Counted from the stretch's first letter, positions 19,145 through 46,270 are shown. The stretch: 64,000 nt of DNA from an uncultured Clostridia bacterium (GCA_947623865.1 CANQIC010000002.1:21041-85040); one strand, 5' to 3'. Numbers and translations are program-made. Notes: generated by a model from the letters alone, not told the origin.

Positions 19145-19516
19145 ATGTATAGAAATTATATGCAAAGAAGATCTTGTTCTTCATGTAATTGCTCATCTAA
19201 TAATAATTCATGTAATAAAAAAGATGAAGATATTATAGATGATACTTGCGAATGCGTACAAAGCGTAATGGATACTAGTGATTCGTGTGAATGTGGATTT
19301 GATGAAGAAGATAAATTGTTTCCTAGTAATCCTATGTTTGCTCAAAGCTATGTGCCATGGCAAACAATGGATAAAACATTTACTCCATGTGTAGGATTAA
19401 AAATGGGAACAATATTCCCAGAGTTAGTTAGTCCATATATGCCTGGACAATCGATGGAAGAAATTGAATATATTAGAAATGCAAATAAAATAGGAAAGGG
19501 GTGTAACAAATGTTAG
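19145..19516 (+). CDS. cotJA: spore coat associated protein CotJA-like
   Basis: Cys-rich N-terminus, then AQSYVPWQ...GTIFPELVSPY, which is the CotJA signature. Confidence 0.65.
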   Translation: MYRNYMQRRSCSSCNCSSNNNSCNKKDEDIIDDTCECVQSVMDTSDSCECGFDEEDKLFPSNPMFAQSYVPWQTMDKTFTPCVGLKMGTIFPELVSPYMPGQSMEEIEYIRNANKIGKGCNKC

Positions 19517-19848
19517 ACAATGATAAATGTGAATGTATGGAACGTAAACACAAAAATTCAAACAATGATAATTCATGTCCTAGAGATATGAGAAGACAAG
19601 AAATGATTGATCAAATAAAAAGTTTAGATTTTGCTATTATCGAACTTGGTCTATATTTGGATACACATCCTGAAGACCAAAGGGCATTATGCATGCATAG
19701 AGAATATTGCAAACAAGTAAAAGAATTAAAAGACAAATATCAAAAAATGTATGGACCACTTACTATATTCTATCCATGCAATAAATGGAGATGGTTAGAA
19801 GAGCCATGGGCTACGTTCAAAATGGAGGTAAAAATGATGATAGATTAA
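19510..19848 (+). CDS. cotJB: spore coat protein CotJB
   Basis: LDFAIIELGLYLDTHPEDQRAL...YGPLT matches the CotJB family core. Confidence 0.8.
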   Translation: MLDNDKCECMERKHKNSNNDNSCPRDMRRQEMIDQIKSLDFAIIELGLYLDTHPEDQRALCMHREYCKQVKELKDKYQKMYGPLTIFYPCNKWRWLEEPWATFKMEVKMMID

Positions 19849-19984
19849 AATTTGCAGAGAGATTGCTCTATGGAGAAATAACTGCGTTAATTGAAAAAAA
19901 TGAAAAGGCATATTAAATTTTAAAAAATATGTCTTTTTTTAGCGTTTTATGTAGAAACTTTATTCTTGCAAAAAAAACAGGTAA

Positions 19985-22900
19985 ATGATAGAATTAAAAA
20001 AAATATATTATAAGGAGAAAGATTTGGAAAAAGAATTGTATTGTATTACAGATGCACAAAAAACAATATGGAATACGGAAAAGTTTTATAAAGATAATCC
20101 TATAGTAAATATTTCTGGTACTTGTACAATTAATTGCAAAGTGAATTTTGAGTTATTAGAAAAAGCAATTAATCAAGTGGTGATGAATAATGATGCTCTT
20201 AGAACAAAAATAACAATAAAAAATGGAGAACCAGTGCAATATTTTGAGGATTATAATAAATTTAAAGTTAAAACTTATAATGTATTAAATGAAAAAGATC
20301 TTGAGCAATTAATAAAAAAGAATTTAAATAAACCATTATCATATAAAGAAGATAGTATGGTTAAGTTTATTATGTTTAAATTTCCAGATGGCACAGGAGG
20401 GGTAAATATAGTTATTAATCATATGATTTCAGATGCATGGTCTGCTATTTTAATATCAAGTGAGGTAGCAGGAACTTATGATAAACTTCTAAATAATGAA
20501 AAAGATACGGACAATATAGAAAGCTCATATATAAACTATATTGAATCTGAAAAAGAGTATAAGAATAGTGAAAAGTATAAAAAAGATAAGCTGTTTTGGG
20601 AGAGATATTTATCAGATTTACCAGAAGAAGTTGCTTCACTAAAACAAAAAGAGGAGATAAATACTTTAGATACTAAAGCAGAAAGAAAAGAAATATTAAT
20701 AAATAAATCAAATGCCGAAAAAATAAATAAGTATTGTAAGGATAATAAAATATCACAATATGTTTTCTTTTTAGGAATATATGCAATTTATTTATCAAAA
20801 TTTACATCTAATAAAAATATTATAATTAATACACCTATATTAAACAGAAAAAATATTAAAGAAAAAAATACAATAGGGATGTTTGTAAATTCATTACCTT
20901 TAAAAATAAATATAGATAGTAAAAAGACAATTCAAGAATTTTTTAATAAAATAGCACAGGACTCTTTGTCAATTTTTAGACATCAAAGATACTCTATATT
21001 TGAAATTTTAAATTATGTAAGAGAAAAGAATAAAAATAATTCAAGTATTTATGATATGGTATTTTCATACCAAAATGCAGTAAGTAAACCAACAACAAAT
21101 AATTTATCATATACATCAAAATGGTATTTTAATGGAAATATTACAGAAACAATGAATATACATGTTTCTGACTTGAATTTAAGTGGCGAATTTTATATTT
21201 ATTACGATTATAAAATTAGTCAACTATCTGATAAGGATATAATTAGAATGCACGAGAGAATTCTAAATATAATAGATCAAATTTTAGAAAACAATGATAA
21301 CAAATTAGAAGAAATAAGCATTTTAAGTAATAATGATATAAAGGAATTAAAGGAGTTAAACAATACAGGTAATATAGAGAAAAACGATAAAACTGTAAAC
21401 ACAATAATTGATGAAATATGCAAAGAATATAGTAATAATATTGCTATGAAATGTAAAAACGTAGAAATAACCTACAAAGTATTTTATGATAAAGTTAATT
21501 CATTGGCAGCATTTTTAAGAAAAAAGGGTGTAAAGCAAAATGTGCCTGTTGCAATTATGCTTGATAAAAGTATAGAGATGATAGTTGCAATGTTTGGAAT
21601 TATAAGAGCAGGTGGTTATTATATTCCAATATTACCAGATGAAGAACAAAAAAGAATAGATTATATAATATCAGATAGCAAACCAGTTTGTATTATAACA
21701 CAAAATAATTATAAATATAAAATAAAAGATGTTGAAATTATAGATATTTTTAATGAGCAATTTGCTCAGGAAAATGTAAAATCAATTAATAGACCAAATG
21801 ATGCTTTATATATGATTTATACTTCTGGGTCAACAGGAAATCCAAAAGGTACACAAGTAATGCACAAAAATGTTTGTGGGTTAATTGAGTCAATGAAATC
21901 AGATAAAACTTTAATACCAACAAGTAATGATATTTCTATGTCATTATTAAAATATTCATTTGATGCAAGCGGTATAGATATATATTCTTCTATACTTTCT
22001 GGGGGAAAATTATTATTAATAGATAAGGAAAACGAATTAAATCCACAAATAATAGTAAAAATAATGGAAAAAGAAAAAGTTACTAGAAGTTTTTTAATTC
22101 CTAAATGGGTTGAACAAATTGCTATAGAAGATCAAAGACAAGAAACAGATTTAAGCATGCTTAAAATACTAGGAACTGGAGGAGAAACTTTAAAACCTAA
22201 TACAGTTGAACACCTATTTACAAAATATCCAAAGCTAAAAATTTTAAATCTATATGGACCAACAGAAACAACAATGTTTACAACATATAAGGTACAAAGC
22301 GAAAATGAGTTTAAAGAAAATAACACATCAATAGGAAAGCCTATAAAACTTTCTAGATGTTTAATTTTAAACGAAGAAAATAATATATTACCACCAAAAG
22401 CAAAAGGTGAGCTTGTAATTTATGAAGATGACAGTTCTATAAAAAATATATCTAAAGGGTACTGGAATTTAGAAGAAGAAACTAAAAAAAGATTTATTAA
22501 TATATATAATCCAATAGTAGAAAAGAATGTTAGGATATATAAAACAGGAGATATAGTTAAATTAAACGAAAAATTAGATATAGAATACATTGGCAGAACT
22601 GATGATATGGTAAAAGTAAATGGTAGCTATTTAGTTGCTCTAAATGAAATTGAAAACATTATATATAGAATAATAAACAAACAAAATAGGGTATCGGTAG
22701 TAGCTGTTCCTCAAAATAATACAAAAATAATAGTAGCCTTTATAGAAGGAATAAAAAAGGAAGAGGTAAAGGGAATAGAAAAATATATAAATAAAAATAT
22801 TACTTTTTATATGAGACCCAAAAAAGTATTTGCTAAAGACGCTTTTCCAATAAATAATTCTGGCAAAATTGATAAAAAACTTCTTAAAGGAATTGCTATA

Positions 22901-24298
22901 GAAGAACTAAAAGCCATTAATAAAAAAATAGTAGAACCTAAAAAACAAACTGAACAGATTATATACAATATAATAAAATCAAATACTAATATTGAAGATT
23001 TTTCTATTAAAGATGATTTTATAAATGATTTAGGAATAGATTCATTAACAATATCTACAATTTTTTCTGAATTAGGCTTTTATAAACTTAAATTACAAGA
23101 TTTATATACATATTCAACTGTAGAAGACTTAGCAAAATTTATTGACACAGGTAGCAATGAAAAAAAAATTATAACATTTAGAGATGTAGAAGTAAAAAAT
23201 GATAGCAAGGAGTTTAATATATCTAATGTATTACTTACTGGTGCAACAGGATTTTTAGGAATACATTTACTTAAAGAATTACTATTAGAAAAGAAAGTAA
23301 AAAATATATATTGTATTATAAGAGACAAAGAATTTAAAACAGGAAATGAAAGATTAAAAGAGAGAATAGACTTTTATTTTGGAAAAAGAAATAAAGAAAT
23401 AAACAGTTTATTAAACAAAAAGGTAATAGTTTTAAATGGAAATATTACTAAAAATAATTTAGGATTAGATAATAACGAGTATATAGAATTAAGAAAAAAG
23501 ATTACCACAGTTATTAATTGCGGTGCAAATGTTAGGCATTATTGTAAACTAGAAGAACTTATAAAAGATAATGTGGATAGTGTAAAAAATATAATGGAGT
23601 TTTGCAAAAATAACATATATCTTGCACATATATCTACTTTATCAATCGCGGGATTTAAAAATGAGAAAACATTAAGCAAAGTATTTGATGAAAATACATT
23701 TTATATAAAACAAGACTTTAATAATAATCCATATCTTATAAGTAAATGTATGGCAGAACAATTACTTTTAGAAAGCAATATGTCAAATATAAAAATATTT
23801 AGACTTGGAAACATTATGCCGAGAACAAGTGATGGAAAATTCCAAATAAACTATAATAAAAATGCATTTATAAATGCATTTAGAAATATTATTATTTCTA
23901 AAAAAATTCCAGAGGAGATTATGGATACAATGATAGAATTTAGCCCTGTGGACGAATGTGCTAATTCTATAATTAAAATTATAAAAAGTGATTCTAATTC
24001 TAAAGTATTTCATATAGTAAGTGATAAGTTTATAACAATAAAAGAGCTATTTTATATTTTAAATAAGTTGTGCTATAATATCGACATAGTACCAATAAAT
24101 GATTTTATAAATGAATTAGATAAATATGACGAAATAGGAAAGCAGTATATTAAAGAATATATAATACAAAACAATATAAATGAATACTCAACCCAAAGTA
24201 CTATAAAGTTACTAAAAAAGAAGCATTTTAGATGGAGCAATATAGATAAAAAATATATAAAAAAGTTAACTAATTTAATAGACCAGAATAGGTGGTAG
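19985..24298 (+). CDS. single-module NRPS: condensation, adenylation, thiolation and terminal reductase domains
   Basis: 1437 aa; A-domain cores LYMIYTSGSTGNPKG and YKTGDIV; PCP GIDSL; C-terminal LLTGATGFLG NAD(P)-binding thioester-reductase fold. Confidence 0.8.
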   Translation: MIELKKIYYKEKDLEKELYCITDAQKTIWNTEKFYKDNPIVNISGTCTINCKVNFELLEKAINQVVMNNDALRTKITIKNGEPVQYFEDYNKFKVKTYNVLNEKDLEQLIKKNLNKPLSYKEDSMVKFIMFKFPDGTGGVNIVINHMISDAWSAILISSEVAGTYDKLLNNEKDTDNIESSYINYIESEKEYKNSEKYKKDKLFWERYLSDLPEEVASLKQKEEINTLDTKAERKEILINKSNAEKINKYCKDNKISQYVFFLGIYAIYLSKFTSNKNIIINTPILNRKNIKEKNTIGMFVNSLPLKINIDSKKTIQEFFNKIAQDSLSIFRHQRYSIFEILNYVREKNKNNSSIYDMVFSYQNAVSKPTTNNLSYTSKWYFNGNITETMNIHVSDLNLSGEFYIYYDYKISQLSDKDIIRMHERILNIIDQILENNDNKLEEISILSNNDIKELKELNNTGNIEKNDKTVNTIIDEICKEYSNNIAMKCKNVEITYKVFYDKVNSLAAFLRKKGVKQNVPVAIMLDKSIEMIVAMFGIIRAGGYYIPILPDEEQKRIDYIISDSKPVCIITQNNYKYKIKDVEIIDIFNEQFAQENVKSINRPNDALYMIYTSGSTGNPKGTQVMHKNVCGLIESMKSDKTLIPTSNDISMSLLKYSFDASGIDIYSSILSGGKLLLIDKENELNPQIIVKIMEKEKVTRSFLIPKWVEQIAIEDQRQETDLSMLKILGTGGETLKPNTVEHLFTKYPKLKILNLYGPTETTMFTTYKVQSENEFKENNTSIGKPIKLSRCLILNEENNILPPKAKGELVIYEDDSSIKNISKGYWNLEEETKKRFINIYNPIVEKNVRIYKTGDIVKLNEKLDIEYIGRTDDMVKVNGSYLVALNEIENIIYRIINKQNRVSVVAVPQNNTKIIVAFIEGIKKEEVKGIEKYINKNITFYMRPKKVFAKDAFPINNSGKIDKKLLKGIAIEELKAINKKIVEPKKQTEQIIYNIIKSNTNIEDFSIKDDFINDLGIDSLTISTIFSELGFYKLKLQDLYTYSTVEDLAKFIDTGSNEKKIITFRDVEVKNDSKEFNISNVLLTGATGFLGIHLLKELLLEKKVKNIYCIIRDKEFKTGNERLKERIDFYFGKRNKEINSLLNKKVIVLNGNITKNNLGLDNNEYIELRKKITTVINCGANVRHYCKLEELIKDNVDSVKNIMEFCKNNIYLAHISTLSIAGFKNEKTLSKVFDENTFYIKQDFNNNPYLISKCMAEQLLLESNMSNIKIFRLGNIMPRTSDGKFQINYNKNAFINAFRNIIISKKIPEEIMDTMIEFSPVDECANSIIKIIKSDSNSKVFHIVSDKFITIKELFYILNKLCYNIDIVPINDFINELDKYDEIGKQYIKEYIIQNNINEYSTQSTIKLLKKKHFRWSNIDKKYIKKLTNLIDQNRW

Positions 24299-24301
24299 CA
24301 A

Positions 24302-26276
24302 ATGGATAATAAAGAAAACCATGTAAAAAATTTAAAAAAATCTAAAATTAAATTTAATATAACTATTGTTTTAATAGACTTAATAACAGTTATTCTTACA
24401 TATTATATTATGCCAATTGTACAAAGCTTTCCACCTTTATCTGAAGATTTTGGCTTTCAAGAAAAGGTACAGGTATTAACTCACGTTCAGCAATACACAA
24501 TAGTCTTTATATTAGGTATTACTATCCATTTAACTTCTTTTAGTATTATAATGAGAAATATAAAAAAATATGTAAAAGAATATTCAAGCAACAAAGAAAT
24601 TTCTGATGAAGAAATTTTAGACATTAGAAAAGAATGCCAAAACATACCGTATAAAGTACTATTAGTACAGATGACATTGTTTATAAGTATAGGAATAATA
24701 TTTAATCTAATAATGCTAGTTAAATTTTTTACGATTGTAAAATTCACGTTAATGATTGTTGCTATTACTTCCATAGTATCACTTTTAACATTTATAACTA
24801 CACAAAGATATTTAAGTAAAATTTTAATTTCTACATACGATGTTACATTAACATACGAAAAGAACTTGGGATATAGAATAAGCAATATTAGAAGTTTGAT
24901 TATGCAAACAATTCCTTTTATTGCTGTAGTTTTAGTAATATTATCTTTAATAGGATATTCAAAGGCAATAGAACAAAAAGGACTAGCAAGTGCAAATTAT
25001 TATAAGGTATATTTAGCAAATCTTGCATTAGATGCAGAAAAAATTAATAAAAATAATTTAATAAAGGTATTAAATGAAATACCACTGAATAATGGAGAAG
25101 ATTCATATTTTATTATAAGTCCATACGAAAAAGAAAGATATAATTCAAAACAAGATAAGCCTATAACAGATTTTGCTTTAACCTATAGAGATTATTTTTA
25201 TGATGATTTTCAAGAGGGAATGTTATATGAAGAATTTGGATCTGATGAACAAATATATGCTAAAAAAGTTTTAGATTACAATGGTAATAGTTGGTATATA
25301 GGATTTAAATTTAGCATGGTTGATGAAGAATTATTGTTATATTATTTTGCAATAATATTATCATTAACATTAGTATCCCTAATAATTCTATATATTTGGG
25401 CAAAAAATATATCAAAAAATACTATAAGAATATCAGAGAATTTAAAAGAGATATTAGAAACAAATAAAATAAACAAAAACAATATACTTCCAATAATGTC
25501 AAATGACGAATTAGGAGACTTATCTTATTACTATAATAAAATACAAGAAAAGTTAATTAGTCAACAAGATATAATAAGTATACAATCAAAATTTTCTGCT
25601 ATAGGAGAAGTAGCAGCAGGAATGGCACATGATATTAATAGTCCAGCATCAGCTATAGAAGGAACAATAAATTTATTATATGACTTTAAAGTAGAATCTG
25701 ACGAAGAAGAATACAAACTTTTATTAGATAATATGAAAATAGCAATAGATAAGATACTAAAATTAGTTAATAATGCAAGAGAACAATTTAGAAATCATGA
25801 TAATTTAGATAAAAAGAGATTTACATTAAACGAACTTCTAATGAGTGTGAAGGTTGCAGAAGAACAAGCAATAATAAAAGAAAGATGCACAATTAGAATA
25901 AATATTGATAATGAAATAAGTATATACGGTATAAAAAGTAAATTATATCAAGTAATAGTTAATATAGTTAGAAATGCACTAAATGCATATAAAGATAATA
26001 ACTTGCAGGGCGAAATATTTATACAAGCAAAAGAAGAAAAAAGTGATATTATAATAGAAATAAAAGATACAGCAGGAGGAATTCCAGAAGAAGTAAAAGA
26101 TGAATTGTTTAGAAAAATATTAACCACAAGAGGTACAAAAGGAACTGGACTACGGACTATATTTGGCTGCTAATATTATAGAAACAGATTTTGCAGGTAA
26201 AATATATTTTGAAACTGTACAAAATAAAGGAACTACTTTTTATATAAAAATACCAAAAAACAAGGGGGAAAATTAG
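24302..26276 (+). CDS. membrane sensor histidine kinase; frame broken by extra C at 26153
   Basis: multi-TM N-terminus; H-box AAGMAHDINSP. Deleting C in ctaCggact restores GTGLGLYLAANIIETDFAGKIYFETVQNKGTTFYIKIP, i.e. the G2 box and C-terminus. Confidence 0.75.
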
Positions 26277-27278
26277 ATGGAAAAAGCAAATAAGGTAATG
26301 ATTATTGATGATGAACAAACTTTTATTGTGCCATTACAAATTGGATTAAAAAGAATGGAAATAGAGGTTGTTTCATTTACAGATCCAGAAGAAGCAATAG
26401 AATATTTAAAAAATAACAAAGTAAATGTTCTATTAACAGATTATCACATGGAACCTAATATTAATGGAGATGAAGTTATTCATAGAATAAGAGAATTTAA
26501 TAAAGATATCATAATATATCTCCAAACAGGATATGCTGAAAAGTTACCTGCAGAAGAGATGCTTGAAAAATATGATATTCAAGGATATATAGACAAAGGA
26601 GAAGGTCAAGAAAAGAATCTTAGATTAATTAAGTCTGCATTAAAGCATGCACAAACTTTAGAATTAGTGAAACAACAAGAAAAGAAATTAGATGCTCAAG
26701 AATATAGAAATCAGTTTTTAGGTAAATTCCTAAATATGCTTATGGGAGAAATAGGAGAAAAAAGTTTTGCAATGGCAGGAAATTTAATGTCTTTAAAGGA
26801 ATTAGAAGAAGAAATTTCTCCGAATGTAAGAGAAATATATAATAAAAATGTAAATAATATAAAAACATCAATTGAAAAATTAAATCAATTAATAAAATCG
26901 TTAGAGTTAGAAAAAGAAAACATAACCATATCTGAATTAAGAGATACTCTAATTAGTTTATTTGAGGTTACTTTTACAATAAAAGATATAAAATTAAATT
27001 TTAGAAATAATACTGATAATGATTATTTAATAATTCCATCTGATTCAAAAGTATTGGTATATATATTAGTAGATATAATAGAGTATTTAATAAAAAAACA
27101 AGAAAAGCAAATTGATATATTTTGTGAAAAAGAAGATAATAGCATAGTAATAAAGGTATGCAATGAAATTGAAAACGATGAATTATTTAATAAAATTGAG
27201 AAGTTAGCTATGTTTGATGAAGATATAGAAATTAAAAATAAATATAATCAAATTAAAGTAATTAGTAAATGCATATAA
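26277..27278 (+). CDS. response regulator with atypical C-terminal domain
   Basis: receiver domain (IIDDE...LLTDYHM...K); 200-aa C-terminal domain with no obvious DNA-binding HTH. Confidence 0.65.
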   Translation: MEKANKVMIIDDEQTFIVPLQIGLKRMEIEVVSFTDPEEAIEYLKNNKVNVLLTDYHMEPNINGDEVIHRIREFNKDIIIYLQTGYAEKLPAEEMLEKYDIQGYIDKGEGQEKNLRLIKSALKHAQTLELVKQQEKKLDAQEYRNQFLGKFLNMLMGEIGEKSFAMAGNLMSLKELEEEISPNVREIYNKNVNNIKTSIEKLNQLIKSLELEKENITISELRDTLISLFEVTFTIKDIKLNFRNNTDNDYLIIPSDSKVLVYILVDIIEYLIKKQEKQIDIFCEKEDNSIVIKVCNEIENDELFNKIEKLAMFDEDIEIKNKYNQIKVISKCI

Positions 27279-27508
27279 TAATTACGAACATCAAAAAATT
27301 AGGAATGATAAAAACCTGCTTACAGATTTATATACAAAACAGATAAAGAAAAATCAATTTAATAAAGATATTTAAAATTCAAGGAGTAAATCTTTGAATT
27401 TTATTTTTCTCAACTTTAATATATTTTAAATATAGAATAAATATTATTTATGATATATTGAATCATTAAAATATTAAAAAATAATATACATTGTATAGAG
27501 GTGATTAG

Positions 27509-27647
27509 TTTGGAATCTAATATTGAAGAACTTTATACAAAAGATGGCAAAGAATTATTTGAATTAATTCAAGAATGGATAAATGAAAATAATTCTTTTT
27601 TATATTATAAAAGTAGAGAGAAAGATGTAAAATATCGTTGTAGATAA
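27509..27647 (+). CDS. small ORF (46 aa) upstream of recombinase 1
   Basis: TTG start behind GAGGTGA Shine-Dalgarno; the same arrangement recurs before recombinases 2 and 3. Confidence 0.25.
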
Positions 27648-27682
27648 GTAGTTATTTATATAACTTGAGATAGGAGGTAAGA

Positions 27683-29281: not shown

Positions 29282-29349
29282 AGTATAAAAATGAGTTATA
29301 ATTCTTCCAAAATGAACGGTGGATGGCCATGGGAAAGGGGGAATTATTA

Positions 29350-31041: not shown

Positions 31042-31057
31042 TTTAAAACCTCCAATT

Positions 31058-36259: not shown

Positions 36260-36553
36260 ATTTATTTCATCTCCTATTTAAAAGTCACAATAAATGTCAC
36301 ATTCACATTTAAAAAAAAATTTTAATGTCACGTTTATTTTATATTTTTTTATTTAGCAAAGCTATAAGATAAGTTCATAAAAAGAAACTAGTTTCCCTTG
36401 TTTTCTACTATTTTAGCATAATCTCAAAACATTTAAAAGTAGAAATTGAACATTGAAAATTAAATATTTTTTGATTAGATAAACTTTTTTAGTGCGTTGC
36501 ACACATACCTATCAAATGGCTTAAATAAAAAAATTTTTAAGGAGGTATAAATT

Positions 36554-37591: not shown

Positions 37592-37604
37592 AGAGGTGTA
37601 TCTT

Positions 37605-37745
37605 ATGGAAGTTAAGGAAATTTGCATTGATAATACAACGATAAAGTTTTTTGATAATTGTATTTTAGAATCAATGAAAGAAGCTAATTTAAGTAGTTTT
37701 GAAACTATCTTATTAGATTCTATAAAAAAAATAGAGAAATTGTAA
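37605..37745 (+). CDS. small ORF (46 aa) upstream of recombinase 2
   Basis: AAGAGGTG Shine-Dalgarno then ATG; same arrangement as at 27509 and 42292. Confidence 0.3.
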   Translation: MEVKEICIDNTTIKFFDNCILESMKEANLSSFETILLDSIKKIEKL

Positions 37746-37782
37746 TTTTCTTCAAAAGCATATATAATAGCACATAGTCAAA

Positions 37783-39372
37783 ATGAAAATTATGAGGAAA
37801 GGAGGAAATTTGGAAAGTGACGAATACGCTATATATTTAAGAAAGTCAAGAGAAGATAGAGATTTGGAAAAATATTGTGTCGGTGAAACACTTGCAAGGC
37901 ATGAAAAAACATTATTAAATCTGGCTCAAAACATGCATCTGCATATTGGAAAAATTTATCGTGAAGTTGTAAGTGGAGAAACAATTTCCGAACGAGAAGA
38001 AATGAAAAAGCTATTAAAAGACGTTGAAGAATGTAAGTGGTCTGGTGTTCTTGTTATGGAAGTTGAAAGATTAGCTCGTGGAGATCCATCCGACCAAGGA
38101 ATTGTTGCAACGGCTTTTAAGTCTTCCTCTACCAAAATAATTACTCCAAATAGAATATATGACCCTAATAATGAGTTCGATGAAGAATTTTTTGAATTTG
38201 GTTTATTTATGGCTAGACGAGAATATAAAACAATAAATAGAAGACTTCAACGAGGCAGAACAACCTCAATAAATGAAGGAAAATATGTAGGAAGTATTCC
38301 CCCATTTGGCTATGAGCGAAAAAAAATAGATAATGCAAAAGGTTATACATTAGTACCTAATGAAAAAGAAGCAAAAATCGTAAAAAAAATATTTGAATTA
38401 TACTCTTATGAAGATGTTTCATTAAACAGCGTTGCTAATAAAATGAACGAATTGGGATTAAAACCTATGAAGGCAGATAGTTGGTCTATCTCCTCTATTA
38501 AAGATATTTTAAATAATCCTGTTTATATCGGTAAAATAAGATGGAATTCAAGAAAACAAGTAATAAAATCAAAGAATGGTCAGAGAATTATTACAAGACC
38601 CAGAAACAATGACGTTACTATTATAGATGGTTTGCATGAACCTATTATAGATGAAAATCTTTGGAACATTGTAAAAAATAAGAGGAATTGTAATACTCCT
38701 CCTGTGCAACATAATAATGTTGTACAAAATCCACTTATGGGAATTGTCTTTTGTGAAAAATGTGGTAAACCAATGCAACGAAGGCCATATAATTTAAAAG
38801 GAAAACCAGCTACCTTAATGTGTAGTAATCCAAAGTGTGATAATATTAGCTCTAAGTTACATATTGTTGAAGAAAAGATTTTAGAAGCAATCGAAATATG
38901 GTTAAAAAACTATACTATAGATTATTCAAAGTTGAATAACAAAAAAAGAACAAAAACGTTTGATGAACTACAAGAATTAAAAGAATTAGAAAATAAATTA
39001 AAAAAAGAAAAAGAAAAATTAAATAAAGTTTATGAGTTATTAGAAGATGGTATTTATACAAAAGAAGATTTTTCTGAACGTTCAAAAACATTAAAAAATA
39101 GTATTACATTAATTGAAGCAGATATAAAAAAAGCTAAGGATAATGTAAACAAAATGAAAGAAATCGAAAAAAGAAAGGATATAATAATTCCTAAATTTAA
39201 AAATGTAATTGAAGTATATGATAAATTAGAAACAAGTGAGGAAAAGAATACTTTGTTAAAAAGCATTCTAGAAAAGGTTACATATTTAAAAACCGAAAAA
39301 GCTATAAAAAAGAATTCTGACCCTACAAAGTTTACTATTTGCATATATCCTAAAATTGCAAAAATTAATTAA
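37783..39372 (+). CDS. large serine recombinase (SpoIVCA-like)
   Basis: YAIYLRKSREDRD catalytic-serine region; recombinase and zinc-ribbon domains (CEKCGKPM...CSNPKCDN); coiled-coil; ends 60 bp before the right junction. Confidence 0.85.
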   Translation: MKIMRKGGNLESDEYAIYLRKSREDRDLEKYCVGETLARHEKTLLNLAQNMHLHIGKIYREVVSGETISEREEMKKLLKDVEECKWSGVLVMEVERLARGDPSDQGIVATAFKSSSTKIITPNRIYDPNNEFDEEFFEFGLFMARREYKTINRRLQRGRTTSINEGKYVGSIPPFGYERKKIDNAKGYTLVPNEKEAKIVKKIFELYSYEDVSLNSVANKMNELGLKPMKADSWSISSIKDILNNPVYIGKIRWNSRKQVIKSKNGQRIITRPRNNDVTIIDGLHEPIIDENLWNIVKNKRNCNTPPVQHNNVVQNPLMGIVFCEKCGKPMQRRPYNLKGKPATLMCSNPKCDNISSKLHIVEEKILEAIEIWLKNYTIDYSKLNNKKRTKTFDELQELKELENKLKKEKEKLNKVYELLEDGIYTKEDFSERSKTLKNSITLIEADIKKAKDNVNKMKEIEKRKDIIIPKFKNVIEVYDKLETSEEKNTLLKSILEKVTYLKTEKAIKKNSDPTKFTICIYPKIAKIN

Positions 39373-39434
39373 AGTAATATCAATAGTTGGAATTATAATT
39401 TTTATTTTGACTATTGATAACTTTAATGGAACAG

Positions 39435-39651
39435 TCGAACTTGCTCACTTAGAAATGGTTGGAACAATAGTTCACCAATTAACAGATGGAGTAGATGCTC
39501 AAGAATTAGAAAAGGCAGGATTAGGAGCATATTATACAGATCATGGTGTAGGAGTATATCCTCAAGCAGCAGCAGGATGGCCATGGAATGCAGCAACTAT
39601 AGCTGTAAAAGGTGATCCAATTGCAGATTTACAAGAAGACTTAGCTGCAGA
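39435..39651 (+). CDS. cotJC: CotJC-like manganese catalase, segment 2 of 3
   Basis: ELAHLEMVGTIVHQLTDGVDAQELEKAGLGAYYTDHG...AAGWPWNAATIAVKGDPIADLQEDLAA is the Mn-catalase central region; it diverges after cttagctgcaga at 39640-39651. Confidence 0.8.
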
Positions 39652-39847
39652 CACTGCACTCTTGAAAGCACAACATCAATAAAATGCAGTAAAATGAACC
39701 AATATTAAATAATTGCACTTACAATTTTGTAAGTGTTTTTTTGTTGGAAATCAAAATTGTTTAATTTTATTAGTATGTAACAATAGAATGTAAAATTAGT
39801 ATTTCGTGTACTAACTACTTACATTCTTTTTTATATCAAAGGGAGAT

Positions 39848-40111
39848 ATGATTATGGATAATCTTACAGTTGAAAGACTTACCCATTTCCCCAAGAATGA
39901 AAAACTATATCATAAAAGGAAAGGCATTAAAGTACCACCAAAAGAAAAGATGAAATATAAAGAATGCCCAGAATATGAATCAACAGAGCATACAAGAATA
40001 TCAAGTAAAACATATATGATAAAGAATTTGCAAAGTGATAAAATTGTAAATACCATATCAACAGACATTTATAAAAAGACTATATCAAAAAATCAAGACC
40101 AGGATTTATAA
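39848..40111 (+). CDS. hypothetical protein
   Basis: 87 aa ORF with RBS AAGGGAGA. Confidence 0.3.
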   Translation: MIMDNLTVERLTHFPKNEKLYHKRKGIKVPPKEKMKYKECPEYESTEHTRISSKTYMIKNLQSDKIVNTISTDIYKKTISKNQDQDL

Positions 40112-40698
40112 CACAACCTACCACACCAACAGTAGAAACATCAACTACAAAGAAATCAAGAATTATAGAAATAATAGAAAAACAAAAACAACCAAGTGAA
40201 ACAGTGTTTTGGGAATTCTTTTAAATACAATTAAAATATTAATAGATAACTATAATAAAAGGGGTGTTATTAGACCAAATTAGCTTGAACTTACAAATAG
40301 AAATATAAAAAGGGGATATTAAATTAAAGAGTTAGAATTCTTGGAACTATAAGAGATAGATTTAGAAGAAATTATTTCATATTTAAAATTAAATAATAGC
40401 CCAACAATTACAATACTTGATGACCTTAACTATGATTTGTTTAATCAACTTGTTGCGTATGCAGAAACATTAAAGTTGATATTCTTTATAGTAAAAGGAA
40501 CATATAAGATAGCCGTAATTTGTAATAGATAAATTGCATTAAAGATAGCCCAAATATTCAAGATAAAAGCACAGATTATGTTTTATAGTAATCTAAAACC
40601 TAGAAAGTTATATTGATACAAATATTAAAAAAGTATATACTTGAAAAATAGACTTTAAAAGCAATTCCAGTTGCAACCCCAGTTGCACAAGCAAAAAT

Positions 40699-40727
40699 TT
40701 GCATTTTACGTGAATCTGTGTTATAAT
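40699..40727 (+). promoter_or_regulatory. sigma-A-type promoter
   Basis: TTGCAT, 17-bp spacer, TATAAT upstream of 40795. Confidence 0.5.
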
Positions 40728-40794
40728 ATATATAATATTCGTGGGTACAGCGAACTATAACAAATGTACCATCTTGTAAGAAACTTTCAAGATT

Positions 40795-41181
40795 TTGGAG
40801 GTCAAAATGAGAACACGGAAATTTTCCAGAATTGCAGTCGTAATAATTATGGTTGTTGTGGTGGTGGCTCTCGCTATAATAGCCAGCGTATTCACTTCAT
40901 TTAACGACCATACCTATACGGCGACCGTTACAGACAAAGAGCGGATTGTTAAAAATGACGATGGAGATGTTGATTCCTACTACTTGATTTTTTGCAAAGA
41001 TGATGGGGGAAATTACTATGAATTTAAGAACGAGGATAATTTACTCCGTTTAAAATTTAACTCATCTTCTGTCTATAATCAGATTGAAGTAGGAGAAACA
41101 TACCAATTTACCGTTGTTGGTTTCCGCATCGGACTGTTCTCATGGTATGAAAATATCATTAAATTTGAAAAGATTAATTGA
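40795..41181 (+). CDS. membrane-anchored DUF1093/YxeA-like protein, foreign composition
   Basis: 128 aa; N-terminal TM. GC is locally much higher than the surroundings and there are two in-frame CGG Arg codons that are not frame breaks. Terminator follows at about 41205-41240. Confidence 0.45.
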   Translation: MEVKMRTRKFSRIAVVIIMVVVVVALAIIASVFTSFNDHTYTATVTDKERIVKNDDGDVDSYYLIFCKDDGGNYYEFKNEDNLLRLKFNSSSVYNQIEVGETYQFTVVGFRIGLFSWYENIIKFEKIN

Positions 41182-41371
41182 ATGTTTTCTACCAACCAAA
41201 AAGAATGTATTTTCTTTTCCCCTTATGGGGTTTCTTTTTTTGACCTTTGAATGTAATACAATATACATTTTAAAAATTGATTAAGTATACTTGTATCAAT
41301 GCCTTCACAAAATAGCACTTATTCCCCTATCAAGAAAATATAATATACTGTATTAACATATAACATTTAAT

Positions 41372-41656
41372 ATGGAACAAGAACAATATTTATTTCCAAG
41401 ACAAAAGCGTACAAATAGACCTATAACAACAGTACAAGCATATCGAATATTAAATAAAGCCGGAGCAAATATAGGACTTGCAGAAATTGCTACACATACA
41501 ATGCGAAAAACTTTTGGTTACCACCACTACCAACAGAATAAAGATGTAGCCATTTTACAAGAAATATTTAATCATTCAGCCCCAAGCATAACTTTAAAAT
41601 ATATAGGAATAAACCAAGATAACATAGACCAAGCATATAAAAATTTTAGACTATAA
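41372..41656 (+). pseudogene. truncated tyrosine recombinase (C-terminal catalytic fragment)
   Basis: ...ATHTMRKTFGYHHYQQ...LKYIGI... is homologous to the C-terminal half of the 34196-34758 integrase; the N-terminal domain is missing. Confidence 0.55.
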
Positions 41657-42291
41657 ATCAAAAGAGTACTAGATAGAATACATCTAGTACTTTTACTTTT
41701 TAAGCAATACCCAAAACGACCATTTTTGGTACTATTTTCTATTCATATAAGCATTTACAGATTTCTTAAATAAGTAGTAAATTTCCCTTTGAACAGAGCA
41801 ACTACATTCAAAAATAATATTGTCTTTTGTTTTTTTATCTGTTACATCTTTAAGTTGAGCAATAGCATTTTCAATTTGTATAGCAAATACATCTAACAGA
41901 TTAGATTTAGAAATAATATTATTTAATACATCATTTTTATGTTATTATCAATTTCACTTAGTATTTGTCTTGAATTAGAATCTAAATGAAATTTGTTAAA
42001 GTTAGGGTCATCAGTTGGTTCAGTAAAAAGGCATCCCAGAAAATTTTATAAAAATCATTAAATACAGAATAATGATACTTTTACCCAGCCACAGACATCG
42101 CAATGGGGGGTAATCTTGTAAAAGAGCAAGAAGATGGAATTCCTATGTACTGTAGAAGCAGTAGTTTAATGATTAGTTACACCTAGAGAATACAACGTGG
42201 CATTCATTAGATATAACACAATATTACTAGAATATGAGTGCATAAGTGTTTTATTTCGTGAATAGATTTAATTAAGAGAGGTGTATTAAAT

Positions 42292-42402
42292 ATGGACTCA
42301 ATAGTATGTGAGAATGTATTTGTTTCAGCAAATGAAACAGAAAAAAGCCAAGCATTCAATGAAGTTTGGCAAATGGTAGTAAATATGATAATAAATAAAT
42401 AA
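42292..42402 (+). CDS. small ORF (36 aa) upstream of recombinase 3
   Basis: AAGAGAGGTG Shine-Dalgarno then ATG. Confidence 0.25.
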   Translation: MDSIVCENVFVSANETEKSQAFNEVWQMVVNMIINK

Positions 42403-42475
42403 ATTTAGTGAAACCAGTTTACAAGAGCCAAGATTATGTGTTATAAAATGTAGCAGATAATATTGGTTCTTTTTA

Positions 42476-44068
42476 TTGTTTTCTGTAAGGGGGAAAATAG
42501 AAATGAAAAGAACAAAACCACTAGTTGCAATATATTGCAGATTATCACAAGAAGATAGAGATAAGAAATCAAGGGAGGACGATAGCGAGAGCATTAAAAA
42601 TCAAAAGATAATGTTAACAGAATATGCAAATGACCAAGATTGGGACATATATGGAATATATAGTGATGATGATTACACTGGAACGGATAGAAATAGACCT
42701 GCATTCAATGAAGTTATAGAACTTGCAAAACAAAAGAAAATTGATATTATTCTATGCAAAAGTCAAAGTAGATTTGCAAGAGAGTTAGAAATAGTGGAAA
42801 TGTATATAAATCGTTTATTTCTTGACTGGGGTATAAGGTTTGTAAGTGTAACAGACAATATAGATACTGCAATAGAAGGAACTACTGTAATGAGGCAAAT
42901 GAATGGTATTATGGATGAAAGATATGTTGAAAATTTATCAGTAAGTATAAAATCAGCATTAAAGACTAAAAGAGCAAATGGCGAATATACTGGTGGATTA
43001 CCACTATATGGTTATAAAAAAGATCCGAACCAAAAAGGACATCTAATTATAGACCCAGAGCCAGCAAAAGTTGTAAGAAGAGTATTTTCTTTATATAATC
43101 AAGGATATGGAAAAACAGCAATAGCAAGAATACTAAATAACGAGGGTATACCCAATCCAACCCAATATAAATTTGAAAAAGGTGTCAAATACAAGACACC
43201 ACCTAATAAACTTGGAACATATTGGAAATACTTTGCAATATCAGATATGTTATGCAATGAAATGTACATAGGAAATATGGTACAAGGAAAATATGGAACT
43301 ATTTCTTATAAGACACATAAGAATAGACCTAAACCACCAGAACAATGGGTTAGAGTTGAAGGAACACACGAACCTATTATAGAAATGGACTTATGGAATA
43401 GTGTACAAAACAAAATCAACAGTAACTTTAAACCATACAAAAATGGAAAAATAGGTTTGTTTGCAAGAAAATGTAAGTGTATGTATTGTAATTATACAAT
43501 GAAATCTAGTAAATCACATGGAGATAGATATTTAAGGTGTAGTACAAAACATGTTTCAAAAGATAGTTGCCAAGGTAGTTTTGTATCAGAGAAAGCACTT
43601 GAAAGGGTAGTCTTGAAAGAACTAAATCATTTAATAGAAAAATATCTAAACATAAGTGAATTTGAAAAAAATATTGTTTTGAAACAATATAGAAATAATA
43701 AAGAAGAATTGCAACAAGAGATTTCAAAGCATCAAAATAAGATAAATGCATATTCAAAAGCATTAAAGGACTTATATATGGACAAAACAAATGAAATTAT
43801 AAGTCAAGAAGAATTTATAGCATTAAGCAATGATATTAGAAAAGATAAGGAAACAGTCGAAGCATTAGTAACAGAAAGAAAAAAACAGTTGTTAGAACTT
43901 AATAATGAACAAGACTTATTAAAAACTAAAAAGCAATTATTAGAAAAATACATAAATGTAGAACAACTTTCAAGAGAAATGGTAGATAATTTAATAGATT
44001 ATATAGAAGTTGGTAGAAAAGACACCAAAACTAAACAACTGCCTATAAAAATTCATTGGAAAATTTAA
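42476..44068 (+). CDS. large serine recombinase
   Basis: VAIYCRLSQEDRD catalytic-serine region; recombinase domain; zinc ribbon (CKCMYCNY...CSTKHVSKDSC); coiled-coil. True start is probably ATG 42503 behind AAGGGGGAAAA. Stop lies 24 bp before the junction. Confidence 0.85.
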   Translation: MFSVRGKIEMKRTKPLVAIYCRLSQEDRDKKSREDDSESIKNQKIMLTEYANDQDWDIYGIYSDDDYTGTDRNRPAFNEVIELAKQKKIDIILCKSQSRFARELEIVEMYINRLFLDWGIRFVSVTDNIDTAIEGTTVMRQMNGIMDERYVENLSVSIKSALKTKRANGEYTGGLPLYGYKKDPNQKGHLIIDPEPAKVVRRVFSLYNQGYGKTAIARILNNEGIPNPTQYKFEKGVKYKTPPNKLGTYWKYFAISDMLCNEMYIGNMVQGKYGTISYKTHKNRPKPPEQWVRVEGTHEPIIEMDLWNSVQNKINSNFKPYKNGKIGLFARKCKCMYCNYTMKSSKSHGDRYLRCSTKHVSKDSCQGSFVSEKALERVVLKELNHLIEKYLNISEFEKNIVLKQYRNNKEELQQEISKHQNKINAYSKALKDLYMDKTNEIISQEEFIALSNDIRKDKETVEALVTERKKQLLELNNEQDLLKTKKQLLEKYINVEQLSREMVDNLIDYIEVGRKDTKTKQLPIKIHWKI

Positions 44069-44091
44069 TAGTTGTACTATCAGAGGTATAA

Positions 44092-44322
44092 CAGAGCAAA
44101 AGGCTAGGGCAACTTATGAAAAATTAATAGATTTATGCAAGGATGACCAAGATGTTATTGACCCACTTCGTTTCTTAAGAGAAAGAGAAGTAGTTCACTT
44201 CCAAAGATTTGGAGAAGCATTACGTGGAGTACAAGATAAACTTGCAGAGAAGAAATTTTATATGAATAATAACAATGATATGAAATGTAGATAAAGAAAA
44301 AGTCCCATAGGGACTTTTTCTT
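44092..44322 (+). repeat. direct repeat copy 1: cotJC 3' end (last 66 codons) plus terminator
   Basis: 231 bp, one mismatch to 46040-46270; encodes EQKARATYEKLIDLCKDDQDVIDPLRFLREREVVHFQRFGEAL... Confidence 0.85.
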
Positions 44323-44349
44323 TATACCATGTGATAAATCTTTAGATGA

Positions 44350-45159
44350 TTAATAATTTAAAAATTTTATTAAACTACTATTGAATTCATCTTTAACATC
44401 ATAAAAAGCTCCATGACCAGCATTTTTAAATGGATATAAAATTGAAGAACGAATATTATTATGCATAATTTCTGCCATAGGAAAAGGACATATTTTATCT
44501 TCTTTTCCATGAAAAATAGCTGTTGGAACATGGATATATTTTAACGAATCAAATATATCTTCATCCCTAAGAGTAATTAAAGAATTCATTTCTCCTATTC
44601 CAGAAGCACTATTACTTAAATTTTGAAACCAGTTTTTAAATGCTATCGAAGGTTTTTTGTAAAAAAACATATTTCCGAAATTTTCATTTAAAGCTGGTCT
44701 GTCATTATATCCTAGCTTTATTAAATCATTGGTAGATTCTATTTTTTGACCATATGGATTATTTGTTGTTTTAGAATATGAAGGAACAGCAGAATCAAGC
44801 AAGCATAATTTTCTAACGCCATACCCATTATACATTTGCATGTATTTTGTAGCAATTGTTCCTCCCATTGAAAAACCTAGTAAATCAAAATTTGATAAAT
44901 TTAAAGCATATATTACATAATATAAATCAGTTGCAAATTGATTATAATTATATCCATTACTTGTTTCATCAGAATTTCCAAATCCTCTTATATCAATACT
45001 TATAATTCTATATCCATTTTTTATTAAATCTGGTAATTGGTATTCAAACATCTTATGTGATAAAGGCCAACCATGAATTAAAACAATTGTCTTATATGCA
45101 TTTGGATTTAATTGGTAAACCGCTATATTTGCATTATCATTTGATGGAATAAAAAACAT
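44350..45159 (-). CDS. alpha/beta-hydrolase fold protein
   Basis: 269 aa; HGWPLSHKMF; GFSMGG nucleophile elbow. Confidence 0.7.
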   Translation of the reverse strand: MFFIPSNDNANIAVYQLNPNAYKTIVLIHGWPLSHKMFEYQLPDLIKNGYRIISIDIRGFGNSDETSNGYNYNQFATDLYYVIYALNLSNFDLLGFSMGGTIATKYMQMYNGYGVRKLCLLDSAVPSYSKTTNNPYGQKIESTNDLIKLGYNDRPALNENFGNMFFYKKPSIAFKNWFQNLSNSASGIGEMNSLITLRDEDIFDSLKYIHVPTAIFHGKEDKICPFPMAEIMHNNIRSSILYPFKNAGHGAFYDVKDEFNSSLIKFLNY

Positions 45160-45326
45160 TAAAATCTCCTTCTTTCATAAATAGTAATATATAATATGGA
45201 AATATAAAAAATTAGTGATAAAAAAGATATTCATAATTGTCTGATTTTCTTAAAAAGTCTTGATTTTGTAAATAAAATGCAGTATAATAAATATAATAAT
45301 AGTGGATATTTAATATCTACTATAAT

Positions 45327-45435
45327 TAAAAATGTGAGTCGCAACCCTATTTGCGTCGAATAAATGGATAGGTGAAAAAATGTGAACCGCAACCCTGCTT
45401 GCGAGATATAAATGCGCAGGTGAAAAAATGTTAAT
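45327..45435 (+). ncRNA. ToxI-like antitoxin RNA: two 48-nt tandem repeats plus a partial third
   Basis: aaaaatgtgaGTcgcaaccctATttgcgTCGaAtaaatgGATaggtg then aaaaaatgtgaACcgcaaccctGCttgcgAGAtataaatgCGCaggtg. Each has an internal cgcaa/ttgcg hairpin; period is 48. Confidence 0.5.
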
Positions 45436-45448
45436 TATAGTAAAATGT

Positions 45449-45483
45449 GGGGTCTATAAAATTAATTTAGATCCCATATTTTC
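45449..45483 (+). terminator. leaky terminator between the RNA repeats and the toxN-like gene
   Basis: ggggtcta..tagatccc stem followed by ATATTTTC. Confidence 0.5.
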
Positions 45484-45504
45484 ATAAAAAGGAGTTAAAT
45501 AATA

Positions 45505-45990
45505 ATGATAATAGAAGATGGAAAATTTTATTTTATAAAAGATGAATTTTTTGATATATTTAAAGATTATAAATTGATGGAAAACAAAGAAGGTGGAAAT
45601 AAAAGACCTTGTTACTTTTGTTTTAGAGATAGAAAAAATAAAGAAATAATATGGTTTGTTCCAATATCGACTAAATATGATAAATATAAGAAGATATATG
45701 ATAATAAAAAATTAAAAATTGGAAATAAACCAGTATATAATTTTGTTTTTGGTAATGTGTTAGGCAAAAAAGCTGTATTTTTAATACAAAATATATTTCC
45801 AACAACAGAAGAATATATATTAGAAAAATATACAAATTCAAATATAGATGTAGAAATACCTACAGTAGTAAAAAACGAAATTATAACTACTGCATTAAGA
45901 GTTGTGAGGCTTGCAGAAGAAGACATACATATTCCATTTTATGATATTGTTGAAATGAGAAATGTTTTATTAAAAGATAAAAATAATTGA
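45505..45990 (+). CDS. ToxN/AbiQ-family endoribonuclease toxin (type III TA)
   Basis: 161 aa; N-terminal GKFYFIKDEFF...KRP...IWFVPISTK resembles the ToxN/AbiQ N-terminus; gene order is repeats, terminator, toxin. Confidence 0.5.
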   Translation: MIIEDGKFYFIKDEFFDIFKDYKLMENKEGGNKRPCYFCFRDRKNKEIIWFVPISTKYDKYKKIYDNKKLKIGNKPVYNFVFGNVLGKKAVFLIQNIFPTTEEYILEKYTNSNIDVEIPTVVKNEIITTALRVVRLAEEDIHIPFYDIVEMRNVLLKDKNN

Positions 45991-46039
45991 ACTGGAAAAA
46001 ATCTTACTAGTTCAAAATGTTACAGCCAATACTTAGCTG

Positions 46040-46270
46040 CAGAGCAAAAGGCTAGGGCAACTTATGAAAAATTAATAGATTTATGTAAGGATGACCAAGA
46101 TGTTATTGACCCACTTCGTTTCTTAAGAGAAAGAGAAGTAGTTCACTTCCAAAGATTTGGAGAAGCATTACGTGGAGTACAAGATAAACTTGCAGAGAAG
46201 AAATTTTATATGAATAATAACAATGATATGAAATGTAGATAAAGAAAAAGTCCCATAGGGACTTTTTCTA
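46040..46270 (+). repeat. direct repeat copy 2 (retains the full cttagctgcaga core, so it is the likely genuine cotJC 3' end)
   Basis: identical to 44092-44322 except C/T at one position. Confidence 0.85.
46042..46242 (+). CDS. cotJC: CotJC-like manganese catalase, segment 3 of 3
   Basis: With segment 2 it reads ...DLQEDLAAEQKARATYEKLIDL..., the conserved Mn-catalase C-terminus; a bidirectional terminator aaaaagtcccatagggacttttt follows. Confidence 0.75.
   Translation, partial: EQKARATYEKLIDLCKDDQDVIDPLRFLREREVVHFQRFGEALRGVQDKLAEKKFYMNNNNDMKCR

Follow-up and report, generated by a model that had tools for sequence, protein, structure and literature searches.

Sporulation genes can be interrupted by elements that a serine recombinase excises in the mother cell, and skin, SPbeta, vfbin, vrin, gin, phi3T, and yin are known representatives of this kind. 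Here, a 64,000-nucleotide (nt) stretch of DNA from an uncultured Clostridia bacterium (GCA_947623865.1, CANQIC010000002.1:21041-85040; referred to as the window, with positions counted from its first letter) was analyzed, in which the spore-coat operon cotJA-cotJB-cotJC of an uncultured gut Clostridium is cut within cotJB and cotJC at three exact sites. The three insertions, designated elements A, B, and C, each carry a gene for a large serine recombinase. The G+C content amounts to about 25% across the whole window.

In the skin element of Clostridioides difficile, the recombinase CD1231 is expressed vegetatively from a sigma-A promoter, and the directionality factor CD1234 (72 amino acids, aa), which has a sigma-E promoter, confines excision to the mother cell (PMC5025042). 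The cotJ locus resembles this system in that large serine recombinase elements reside inside mother-cell sporulation genes, the frame of which would be precisely restored on removal, and, in the case of element B, in a sigma-A-like recombinase promoter and a nearby small unannotated ORF, which is preceded by a putative sigma-E-like -10 box where CD1234 has its sigma-E promoter. Whereas skin is a single element targeting the regulator gene sigK, three elements with three unrelated recombinases were found here in one operon, and their targets are structural coat genes. Moreover, skin excision and the function of its small protein were proven, whereas we infer both for the cotJ locus.

The Bacillus subtilis prophages SPbeta in spsM and phi3T in kamA (PMC4191935, PMC5499854, PMC6957869) share with the window elements the arrangement attL ... 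rdf-int-attR, that is, a recombination directionality factor gene (rdf, a candidate one in the window elements) and an integrase gene (int) placed between the left and right attachment (att) sites, as well as a short crossover core flanked by imperfect inverted repeats. For phi3T in kamA, the integrase was described as constitutive and the rdf as sporulation-induced (PMC6957869). Unlike these active prophages of 130 kb, the window elements are far too small and showed no phage genes among the open reading frames (ORFs) scanned. The element gin, located in gerE of Bacillus cereus ATCC 10987, is likewise a non-prophage gene-intervening element with non-phage cargo, and its excision is carried out by a serine recombinase (GirC) and a helper (GirX) (PMC5595907); it differs in being one 28.6-kb element with three recombinase genes, whereas three elements of 4.4-9.9 kb with one recombinase each are present in the window. 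Overall, the window elements resemble gin more than skin or SPbeta. The heterocyst elements of Anabaena (nifD, fdxN/XisF, hupL) offer a further parallel, since several elements are excised there in a terminally differentiated cell and XisF is a large serine recombinase; however, these elements belong to other organisms and to another developmental programme, and the NCBIfam XisF matches were weak (77-112 bits, far below the cut-off of 375).

In the preprint bioRxiv 10.1101/2021.11.22.469490, cotJC is named as a frequent integration target, a statement attributed to Abe et al. 2013 (Mol Microbiol 90:415). The literature searches returned no report of stacked cotJ elements, their recurrence, cotJB as a target, or experimental cotJC rearrangement. 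The novelty that a preliminary description of the window had claimed for the locus was too strong a claim, since cotJC had already been listed as a target. In C. difficile R20291, the prophage phi027 adjoins the CotJC-like manganese catalase gene CDR20291_1465, which was lost along with phi027 in a deletion mutant (PMC11222575).

Three insertions in series within cotJB and cotJC

Unbroken versions of the operon were found in relatives of the host, as the preliminary description had proposed to look for. L005, a related metagenome contig, encodes uninterrupted cotJA, cotJB (107 aa), and cotJC (201 aa) in the gene order sortase, two-part pyruvate kinase, cotJA-cotJB-cotJC, a uridine-kinase-like gene on the other strand, riboflavin kinase, and spoIIIA operon, and the window is collinear with this contig at 17.5-19.5 kb and from 46.3 kb onward. 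In between, the window and L005 align as four collinear blocks (Table 1) with breaks at 19809/29323, 29543/39428, and 39651/44092. The second contig, L042 (1,235 bp), originates from another sample and comprises the end of cotJA, a 107-aa cotJB, and cotJC, all unbroken; all three sites are exactly identical to the predicted empty attachment sites (attB). Because its DNA is 98-99% identical to the window, L042 evidently represents a closely related strain without the elements and not an excision product of the same strain.

The host gene pieces and the elements are listed in Table 1. In agreement with the preliminary description, cotJA is intact, as indicated by its Pfam match. The ORF at 19510-19848, previously taken for an intact cotJB, proved to be a fusion of 100 cotJB codons and 12 foreign codons that still matches the Pfam family CotJB: element A cuts the gene at codon 100, and the last seven codons reside at 29327-29350. 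The joined cotJB encodes 107 aa, equal in length to the CotJB proteins of L005 and L042, and its end reads EEPWPWERGNY. Joining cotJC segments 1 and 2 with the 3' piece yields a protein of 201 aa, which matches Mn_catalase with 2.9e-53, bearing out the proposed reconstitution of a roughly 200-aa Mn catalase, and aligns along its entire length with intact 201-aa proteins at 97% identity. An exact-sequence look-up of this joined CotJC retrieved the public protein P0121, encoded on L042; the segments joined in this way give a real protein and are not unrelated Mn-catalase remnants. The junction codon between segments 1 and 2, for which E or V had been considered, resolves to GAA (Glu), giving DIGTEELAH, with the crossover GA at 29542-29543; the reading DIGTV was rejected, because both the location of the palindrome centre and the sequence of the empty site favour DIGTE. 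As shown by sequence comparison, removal of the three insertions would restore cotJB and cotJC exactly and in frame.

The large serine recombinase genes proposed at 27683-29281, 37783-39372, and 42476-44068 were confirmed by domain matches, PF00239, PF07508, and PF13408 all scoring above their cut-offs in each of the three proteins (521-532 aa). The catalytic serine motif A-I-Y-x-R-x-S-x-E-D was invariant in the three-protein alignment (S26 in recombinase A numbering), and pairwise identities among the recombinases amounted to only 27-32%. Exact protein look-ups from the longest ORF start gave no record for recombinases B and C, the latter being matched only from the ATG at 42503. Each recombinase gene lies at the right end of its element and reads toward the junction, the stop codons being located 42, 65, and 24 bp from the right junctions of A, B, and C, respectively.

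For each element, the attachment site of the excised form (attP) was rebuilt from both element ends, and dyad symmetry was scored over 21 positions per arm. Scores of 12/21 (A), 15/21 (B), and 11/21 (C) were obtained, with the best centre exactly on the core each time. Random window positions gave a background of 6.25 +/- 2.14, and the fractions reaching 12, 15, and 11 were 0.010, 0.00025, and 0.029, respectively. The rebuilt attP of element B reads TTGATAACTTTAATGGAAC-AGTCGATTAT-GTTCCAAAAAGGTTATCAA. At the level of sequence, the three insertions were shown to be precise site-specific events at genuine serine-integrase att sites. The elements had been described as nested; instead, they are arranged serially, because the host gene segments 29327-29543 and 39439-39651 separate them, and each element has its own attL and attR in host DNA.

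The cotJC 3' piece together with its terminator hairpin occurs twice (44092-44321 and 46040-46269), the copies differing by 1 nt. In the proximal copy (3a), the coding sequence extends to the stop codon at 44294 and is followed by the terminator hairpin up to 44321. The preliminary description had assembled cotJC from three pieces, the last being 46042-46242. Pieces do exist at 29350-29543, 39439-39651, and 46040-46242, but 46042-46242 is not the junction partner of element C. This role evidently belongs to the proximal copy at 44096-44294, which starts 24 bp after the recombinase C stop, because recombinase-C relatives in five contigs run straight into cotJC residues 133-200; in all recombinase-C relatives, a gene fragment directly follows the recombinase. 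The distal copy (3b), beginning at 46040, was rejected as partner, since the attP obtained with it has no centred dyad and its left edge is not an att site. It is preceded by nine further cotJC-like bases, ACTTAGCTG, and before them by TTACAGCCAATA; this motif is also found about 35 nt inside the right end of site-B elements in the relatives L012 and L018, and the left edge is therefore not an att site.

After excision of element C, cotJC would end at 44294 with its own terminator, making the distal copy redundant. Copy 3b is probably a leftover duplicate, and the islet together with this copy (44322-46269) looks like variable debris of an older insertion, located outside the rebuilt gene. In L008, a 99.5%-identical strain, different DNA was found beyond the islet hydrolase gene. 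Two origins of the islet and the duplicated 3' end were considered, namely a circle with a copy of the cotJC 3' end that integrated in Campbell fashion, and an older element combined with a deletion; neither could be established.

Other assemblies reproduced the junctions, namely L001 (99.7%), L008 (99.5%), and L007 and L009 (100% each). Together, they cover attL-A, attR-A, attR-B, attL-C, attR-C, and the islet, attL-B being located just outside the compared L001 DNA.

Table 1. Coordinates of host gene pieces, elements, attachment sites, and cargo at the cotJ locus of the window.
Feature	Position	Strand	Basis or remark
Block collinear with L005 9269-9977	19086-19809
cotJA, intact	19145-19516	+	Pfam CotJA 3.7e-14; synteny with unbroken operons of L005 and L042
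cotJB 5' part, codons 1-100	19510-19809	+	Pfam CotJB; L005/L042 homology stops at 19809 (...EEPW)
Element A core ATGG, attL	19806-19809		Dyad centre TG
Element A, 9.5 kb	19810-29326	+	In cotJB at codon 100; Pfam on cargo; rebuilt attP
One-module nonribosomal peptide synthetase	19985-24298		C-A-T-reductase
Histidine kinase	24302-26173
Response regulator	26277-27278
Small ORF A, 45-48 aa, candidate directionality factor	27501-27647	+	Conserved upstream of recombinase-A relatives (L022, L021, L012)
Recombinase A	27683-29281	+	Resolvase, Recombinase, Zn_ribbon_recom domains
Element A core ATGG, attR	29323-29326		Dyad centre TG
Block collinear with L005 9974-10194	29323-29543
cotJB 3' part, last 7 codons (PWERGNY + stop)	29327-29350	+	Overlaps cotJC ATG at 29350
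cotJC segment 1, codons 1-64 + 2 nt of codon 65	29350-29543	+	98% nt identity to L005; empty-site comparison
Element B core GA, attL	29542-29543		Dyad centre GA
Element B, 9.9 kb	29544-39438	+	In cotJC codon 64/65, inside metal-binding motif GTEELAH
Conserved 345-aa protein	36554-37591		No function assigned
Sigma-E-type -10 box CATACAAT	37577-37584	+	21 nt upstream of small ORF B start codon
Small ORF B, 46 aa, candidate directionality factor	37605-37745	+	Conserved upstream of recombinase-B relatives
Recombinase B	37783-39372	+	Resolvase, Recombinase, Zn_ribbon_recom domains
Block collinear with L005 10184-10407	39428-39651
Element B core GA, attR	39437-39438		Dyad centre GA
cotJC segment 2, codons 65-135	39439-39651	+	Alignment to L005; empty-site comparison
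Element C core CAGA, attL	39648-39651		Dyad centre GA
Element C, 4.4 kb	39652-44095	+	In cotJC at codon 135; Pfam, Rfam
Tyrosine-integrase C-terminal fragment	41372-41656
pemK RNA motif (RF02913)	42069-42148	+	34.5 bits, just under gathering score 34.8
Small ORF C, 36 aa, candidate directionality factor	42292-42402	+	Conserved upstream of recombinase-C relatives (L031-L036)
Recombinase C	42476/42503-44068	+	Resolvase, Recombinase, Zn_ribbon_recom domains
Element C core CAGA, attR	44092-44095		Dyad centre GA
Block collinear with L005 10404-10607	44092-44295		Second copy at 46028-46243
cotJC segment 3, proximal copy 3a	44096-44321	+	99.6% identical to empty-site contig L042
Islet without recombinase	44322-46030		Pfam, tandem repeats, PDB, NCBIfam
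Alpha/beta hydrolase	44350-45159	-	Pfam
CptI-like repeats, 48 nt x 2.2 tandem	45328-45431		Tandem-repeat search
CptN toxin	45505-45990	+	PDB 4rmo 2e-17; NCBIfam CptIN 157 bits (cut-off 90)
Distal copy 3b of cotJC 3' end + terminator	46031-46269	+	1 nt differs from 3a

Recurrence of the insertion sites and cargo of the elements

Scanning species-representative genomes with recombinase B detected relatives in 17 metagenome-assembled genomes (MAGs) of uncultured Clostridia at 44-70% identity, with the source labels rabbit, mouse, human, and other. In 16 species-level MAGs (recombinases 56-70% identical), a cotJC fragment was located beside the recombinase gene, the break being at the identical cotJC site: wherever the junction was covered, the 5' fragment ended at reference position 868 and the 3' fragment started at position 857. 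These site-B elements range from 3.3 to 11 kb, and most of them are inserted in the opposite orientation, while L022 and L026 share that of the window. Their attP is a near-perfect palindrome, ATTGACAACATCATGGTAC-AGAAGAATGT-GTACCATGATGTTGTCAAT, with 19-bp arms and a centre corresponding to the GA of the window.

Site A in cotJB is occupied in four MAGs (L012, L015, L021, and L022), the attP again being palindromic. For site C, a metagenome scan with recombinase C yielded relatives of 55-80% identity; in five metagenome contigs (L032-L036), cotJC residues 133-200 start 23-38 bp past the stop codon of the recombinase-C relative, across the CAGA junction, which, by sequence, marks site C as a recurrent target, too. 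Three recombinase genes within the cotJ operon were also detected in L012. The skin- and SPbeta-type architecture recognized in the preliminary description is accordingly upheld by end-placed recombinases, short cores, palindromic attP sites, the restored frame, the empty-site strain, and the reuse of the sites in many species. A fourth cotJC site, unused in the window, was noticed at about codon 102 (reference position 981) in L012 and L018, where the host sequence ends with GATCATGGGGTGGG; about 1 kb from this break, L012 encodes a recombinase with 38% identity to recombinase C.

Phage relatives were found only for the recombinase-B lineage. Recombinase B matches the integrase of the Paenibacillus larvae phage phiIBB_Pl23 (KF010834) with 47% identity and 98% length coverage; the attP of this phage, which directly follows the integrase gene, features the same arm motif and the GGTACAGAAGA core of the cotJC-site elements. 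The site-B lineage therefore descends from temperate-phage integrases. In contrast to the window elements, phiIBB_Pl23 is a complete temperate phage, and its host belongs to another class, the Bacilli.

Regarding cargo, element A encodes a one-module nonribosomal peptide synthetase (condensation, adenylation, and thiolation domains plus reductase), a histidine kinase, and a response regulator. The response regulator, which follows the kinase, has no recognizable output domain, and this cargo is absent from the relatives occupied at the same cotJB site. Element B carries genes for small membrane, zinc-ribbon, and SHOCT proteins, a helix-turn-helix regulator, and a conserved protein to which no function was assigned, while element C comprises small ORFs, the tyrosine-integrase fragment, and a pemK-like RNA motif situated some 150 nt ahead of small ORF C and recombinase C. 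No phage structural genes were present among the ORFs scanned; PHROGs matches were limited to regulators and proteins of unknown function (including a weak match of the 161-aa toxin ORF), and PADLOC assigned no defence system among the cargo ORFs. With element sizes of 4.4-9.9 kb and no phage structural genes in this ORF set, an interpretation as prophages or prophage remnants was rejected.

The recombinase-free islet encodes an alpha/beta hydrolase and a type III toxin-antitoxin module of the CptIN type, the CptN-family toxin gene being preceded by tandem repeats. The CptI-CptN module (45246-45986) is 96% identical at the nt level to L012 7203-7944 and L018 1241-1982, although the recombinase B genes of these two are only about 70% identical to that of the window, and the islet hydrolase gene is 93% nt identical to that of L010. 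Judging from these identities, the CptIN module and the hydrolase look like recently exchanged cargo cassettes.

Proposed excision in the mother cell and competing explanations

We consider it probable that three independent non-phage elements in series are excised in the mother cell, rebuilding the cotJ operon during sporulation. In B. subtilis, the cotJ operon is transcribed in the mother cell. According to the proposed mechanism, the recombinases would be made constitutively, whereas the small ORFs located upstream of them would encode directionality factors switched on by mother-cell sigma factors in sporulation. In the mother cell, which is terminally differentiated, A, B, and C would then all be removed, allowing cotJA-cotJB-cotJC to be transcribed and translated for coat assembly, and the forespore chromosome would keep the elements.

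A conserved ORF of 36-48 aa lies immediately upstream of each recombinase gene. Homologous ORFs of 42-47 aa were found directly upstream of the recombinase in 13 of the 15 site-B relatives examined, and the exact small ORF B protein is present in a public collection. Strict regular-expression scans of the window for sigma-E and sigma-K promoters gave nothing at the expected places; these patterns were too strict, missing even the region upstream of cotJA, and comparative alignments were used for promoters instead. Between the small ORF and the recombinase gene, a sigma-A-like promoter is conserved in the B family (TTGTAA-N17-TATAAT) and in the C family (TTTACA-N18-TATAAA). Upstream of small ORF B, the box CATACAAT fits the B. 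subtilis sigma-E -10 consensus, CATACAnT; among the site-B relatives, CATAAAT occurs at the aligned position in 9 of 12, with a conserved GTATTT 14 nt upstream. As a sequence motif, this sigma-E box is suggestive only.

The coding capacity of the split genes also bears on the question. In 11 of 11 cotJC 3' fragments from split genomes (window included), the frame is open, and the motifs ELAHLE and REREVVHFQRFGE as well as the metal ligands are kept. The ratio of nonsynonymous to synonymous substitution rates (dN/dS) among these fragments has a pairwise median of 0.14 at a dS of about 1.1. In cotJC, the window and L042 differ at eight codons, every change being synonymous; with L005 as the outgroup, four of these changes are derived on the window branch. 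Taken as evidence for function, open frames and selection appear supportive but not decisive.

Several observations weigh against excision in the mother cell. The assignment of the small ORFs as directionality factors is a guess from their position, none of the three having matched any named family in the profile scans. The sigma-E-like box is missing in 3 of the 12 relatives, 8-mers like it occur 20 times in the window on both strands (about one per 6.4 kb per strand), and the comparative alignments gave no consistent CATA-type box upstream of small ORFs A and C. No contig with joined sites from the same strain was found, and exact look-ups of ORFs that would run across the attP junctions of the three circularized elements were empty, an integrated-form control ORF being absent as well. 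Furthermore, recombinase identity and cotJC identity do not correlate (Spearman 0.09). Together with cargo modules that hardly differ (96% and 93% nt identity) even where the hosts have diverged, this indicates that the elements move horizontally; purifying selection could therefore largely predate each insertion, and the intact frames might reflect nothing more than recent insertion. With no correlation in this co-divergence test of recombinase B and cotJC, the split cannot be regarded as inherited vertically over long times. The cotJC 5' fragment of L020 was recovered as two tblastn high-scoring segment pairs (HSPs), read from these HSPs alone as a 1-nt frameshift. Finally, coat formation was reported not to require CotJ proteins in other species (PMC11222575), and simple loss of cotJ could therefore be tolerated.

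In the strongest alternative, A, B, and C are ordinary mobile elements with serine integrases, and their attB sites just happen to lie in conserved but dispensable cotJB and cotJC genes, which serve as a passive landing pad. Carriers would lose CotJB and CotJC, and excision would be rare or serve transfer, with no tie to sporulation. This explanation seems rather unlikely to us, even though it accommodates the horizontal mobility of the elements and their missing co-divergence with the host gene, the near-identical cargo modules of otherwise diverged species, the coexistence of empty-site and carrier strains, the L020 fragment read as frameshifted, and the dispensability or redundancy reported for coat catalases of C. 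difficile (PMC11222575). It does not readily explain that all 11 cotJC 3' fragments and the window segments keep open frames and metal ligands, or that every difference from the empty-site strain is synonymous. Moreover, at least four recombinase lineages converge on one 1-kb mother-cell operon, as in proven sporulation-excised elements, and a small ORF with a sigma-E-like -10 box beside a sigma-A-driven recombinase mirrors the skin element of C. difficile.

A stochastic switch, in which excision and re-integration at low frequency in vegetative cells would generate subpopulations with or without cotJ and hence heterogeneous spore coats, is very improbable. The apparently constitutive sigma-A-like promoters of the recombinase genes would suit such a switch, and some clostridial large serine recombinases (TnpX, TndX), also using a GA crossover, excise without a helper. 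However, once excised, an element that lacks replication functions would disappear as the cells divide, the small ORF conserved in front of each recombinase family speaks for controlled directionality, and three independent switches would rarely all be on together. An assembly artefact or decayed pseudogene, i.e., a chimeric metagenome assembly or unrelated catalase remnants, which the uncultured, metagenome-derived origin of the sequence and the low coverage of relatives might suggest, is effectively refuted by the reproduction of most junctions in L001, L008, L007, and L009, the same split sites in 16 other species, and the joining of the segments into a protein identical to a real one.

Beyond mother-cell excision in the window itself, a guild of four or more unrelated serine-recombinase mini-elements may use the cotJ operon in common as a 'parking lot' within a clade of gut Clostridia, so that a mother cell would need up to three orthogonal, developmentally timed excisions to make one coat operon; the chances of this broader reading appear evenly balanced. 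The parking sites would be codon 100 of cotJB and codons 64, about 102, and 135 of cotJC. If excision is true, the locus would represent the densest known programmed gene rebuilding in a spore former, with three recombinations for one 1-kb operon, and similar stacking is seen in gut Clostridia of rabbit, mouse, and human origin. Structural coat genes, beyond the regulators sigK and gerE, would then be favoured havens for selfish elements exploiting the disposable mother cell. The locus further provides three sets of recombinase, attB, attP, and candidate helper, the sites being mapped to a 2-4 bp core with natural empty sites available, and there is demand in genome engineering for orthogonal serine integrases whose sites are known. 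Each unit of recombinase, small helper, and attL/attR might even constitute a natural, mutually orthogonal excision switch triggered by sporulation. In practical terms, automated annotation will label cotJB and cotJC in such MAGs as pseudogenes or fragments, understating their sporulation gene sets.

Neighbouring genes

Upstream of the cotJ operon, pyruvate kinase (PK) is encoded by two ORFs (17545-18985), the PK barrel (327 aa) and the PK_C domain (154 aa), with an 8-nt overlap. Separate PK ORFs are also present in the 84%-identical relative L005 (7654-9094), which looks like a conserved gene fission. Downstream, spoIIIAA and spoIIIAE are each represented by two ORFs in the strain of the window (about 47.6-50.9 kb) and in L005; the split genes are located at 12140-13088 and 14390-15534 in L005 and at 2459-3407 and 4641-5788 in L007, and these calls could be either real fissions or recurrent frameshifts. 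In addition, an intergenic stretch of about 120 bp (47407-47525) matches L005 at 14263-14378 (inverted) and at 17581-17701, and these two matches suggest a small dispersed repeat in the spoIIIA region.

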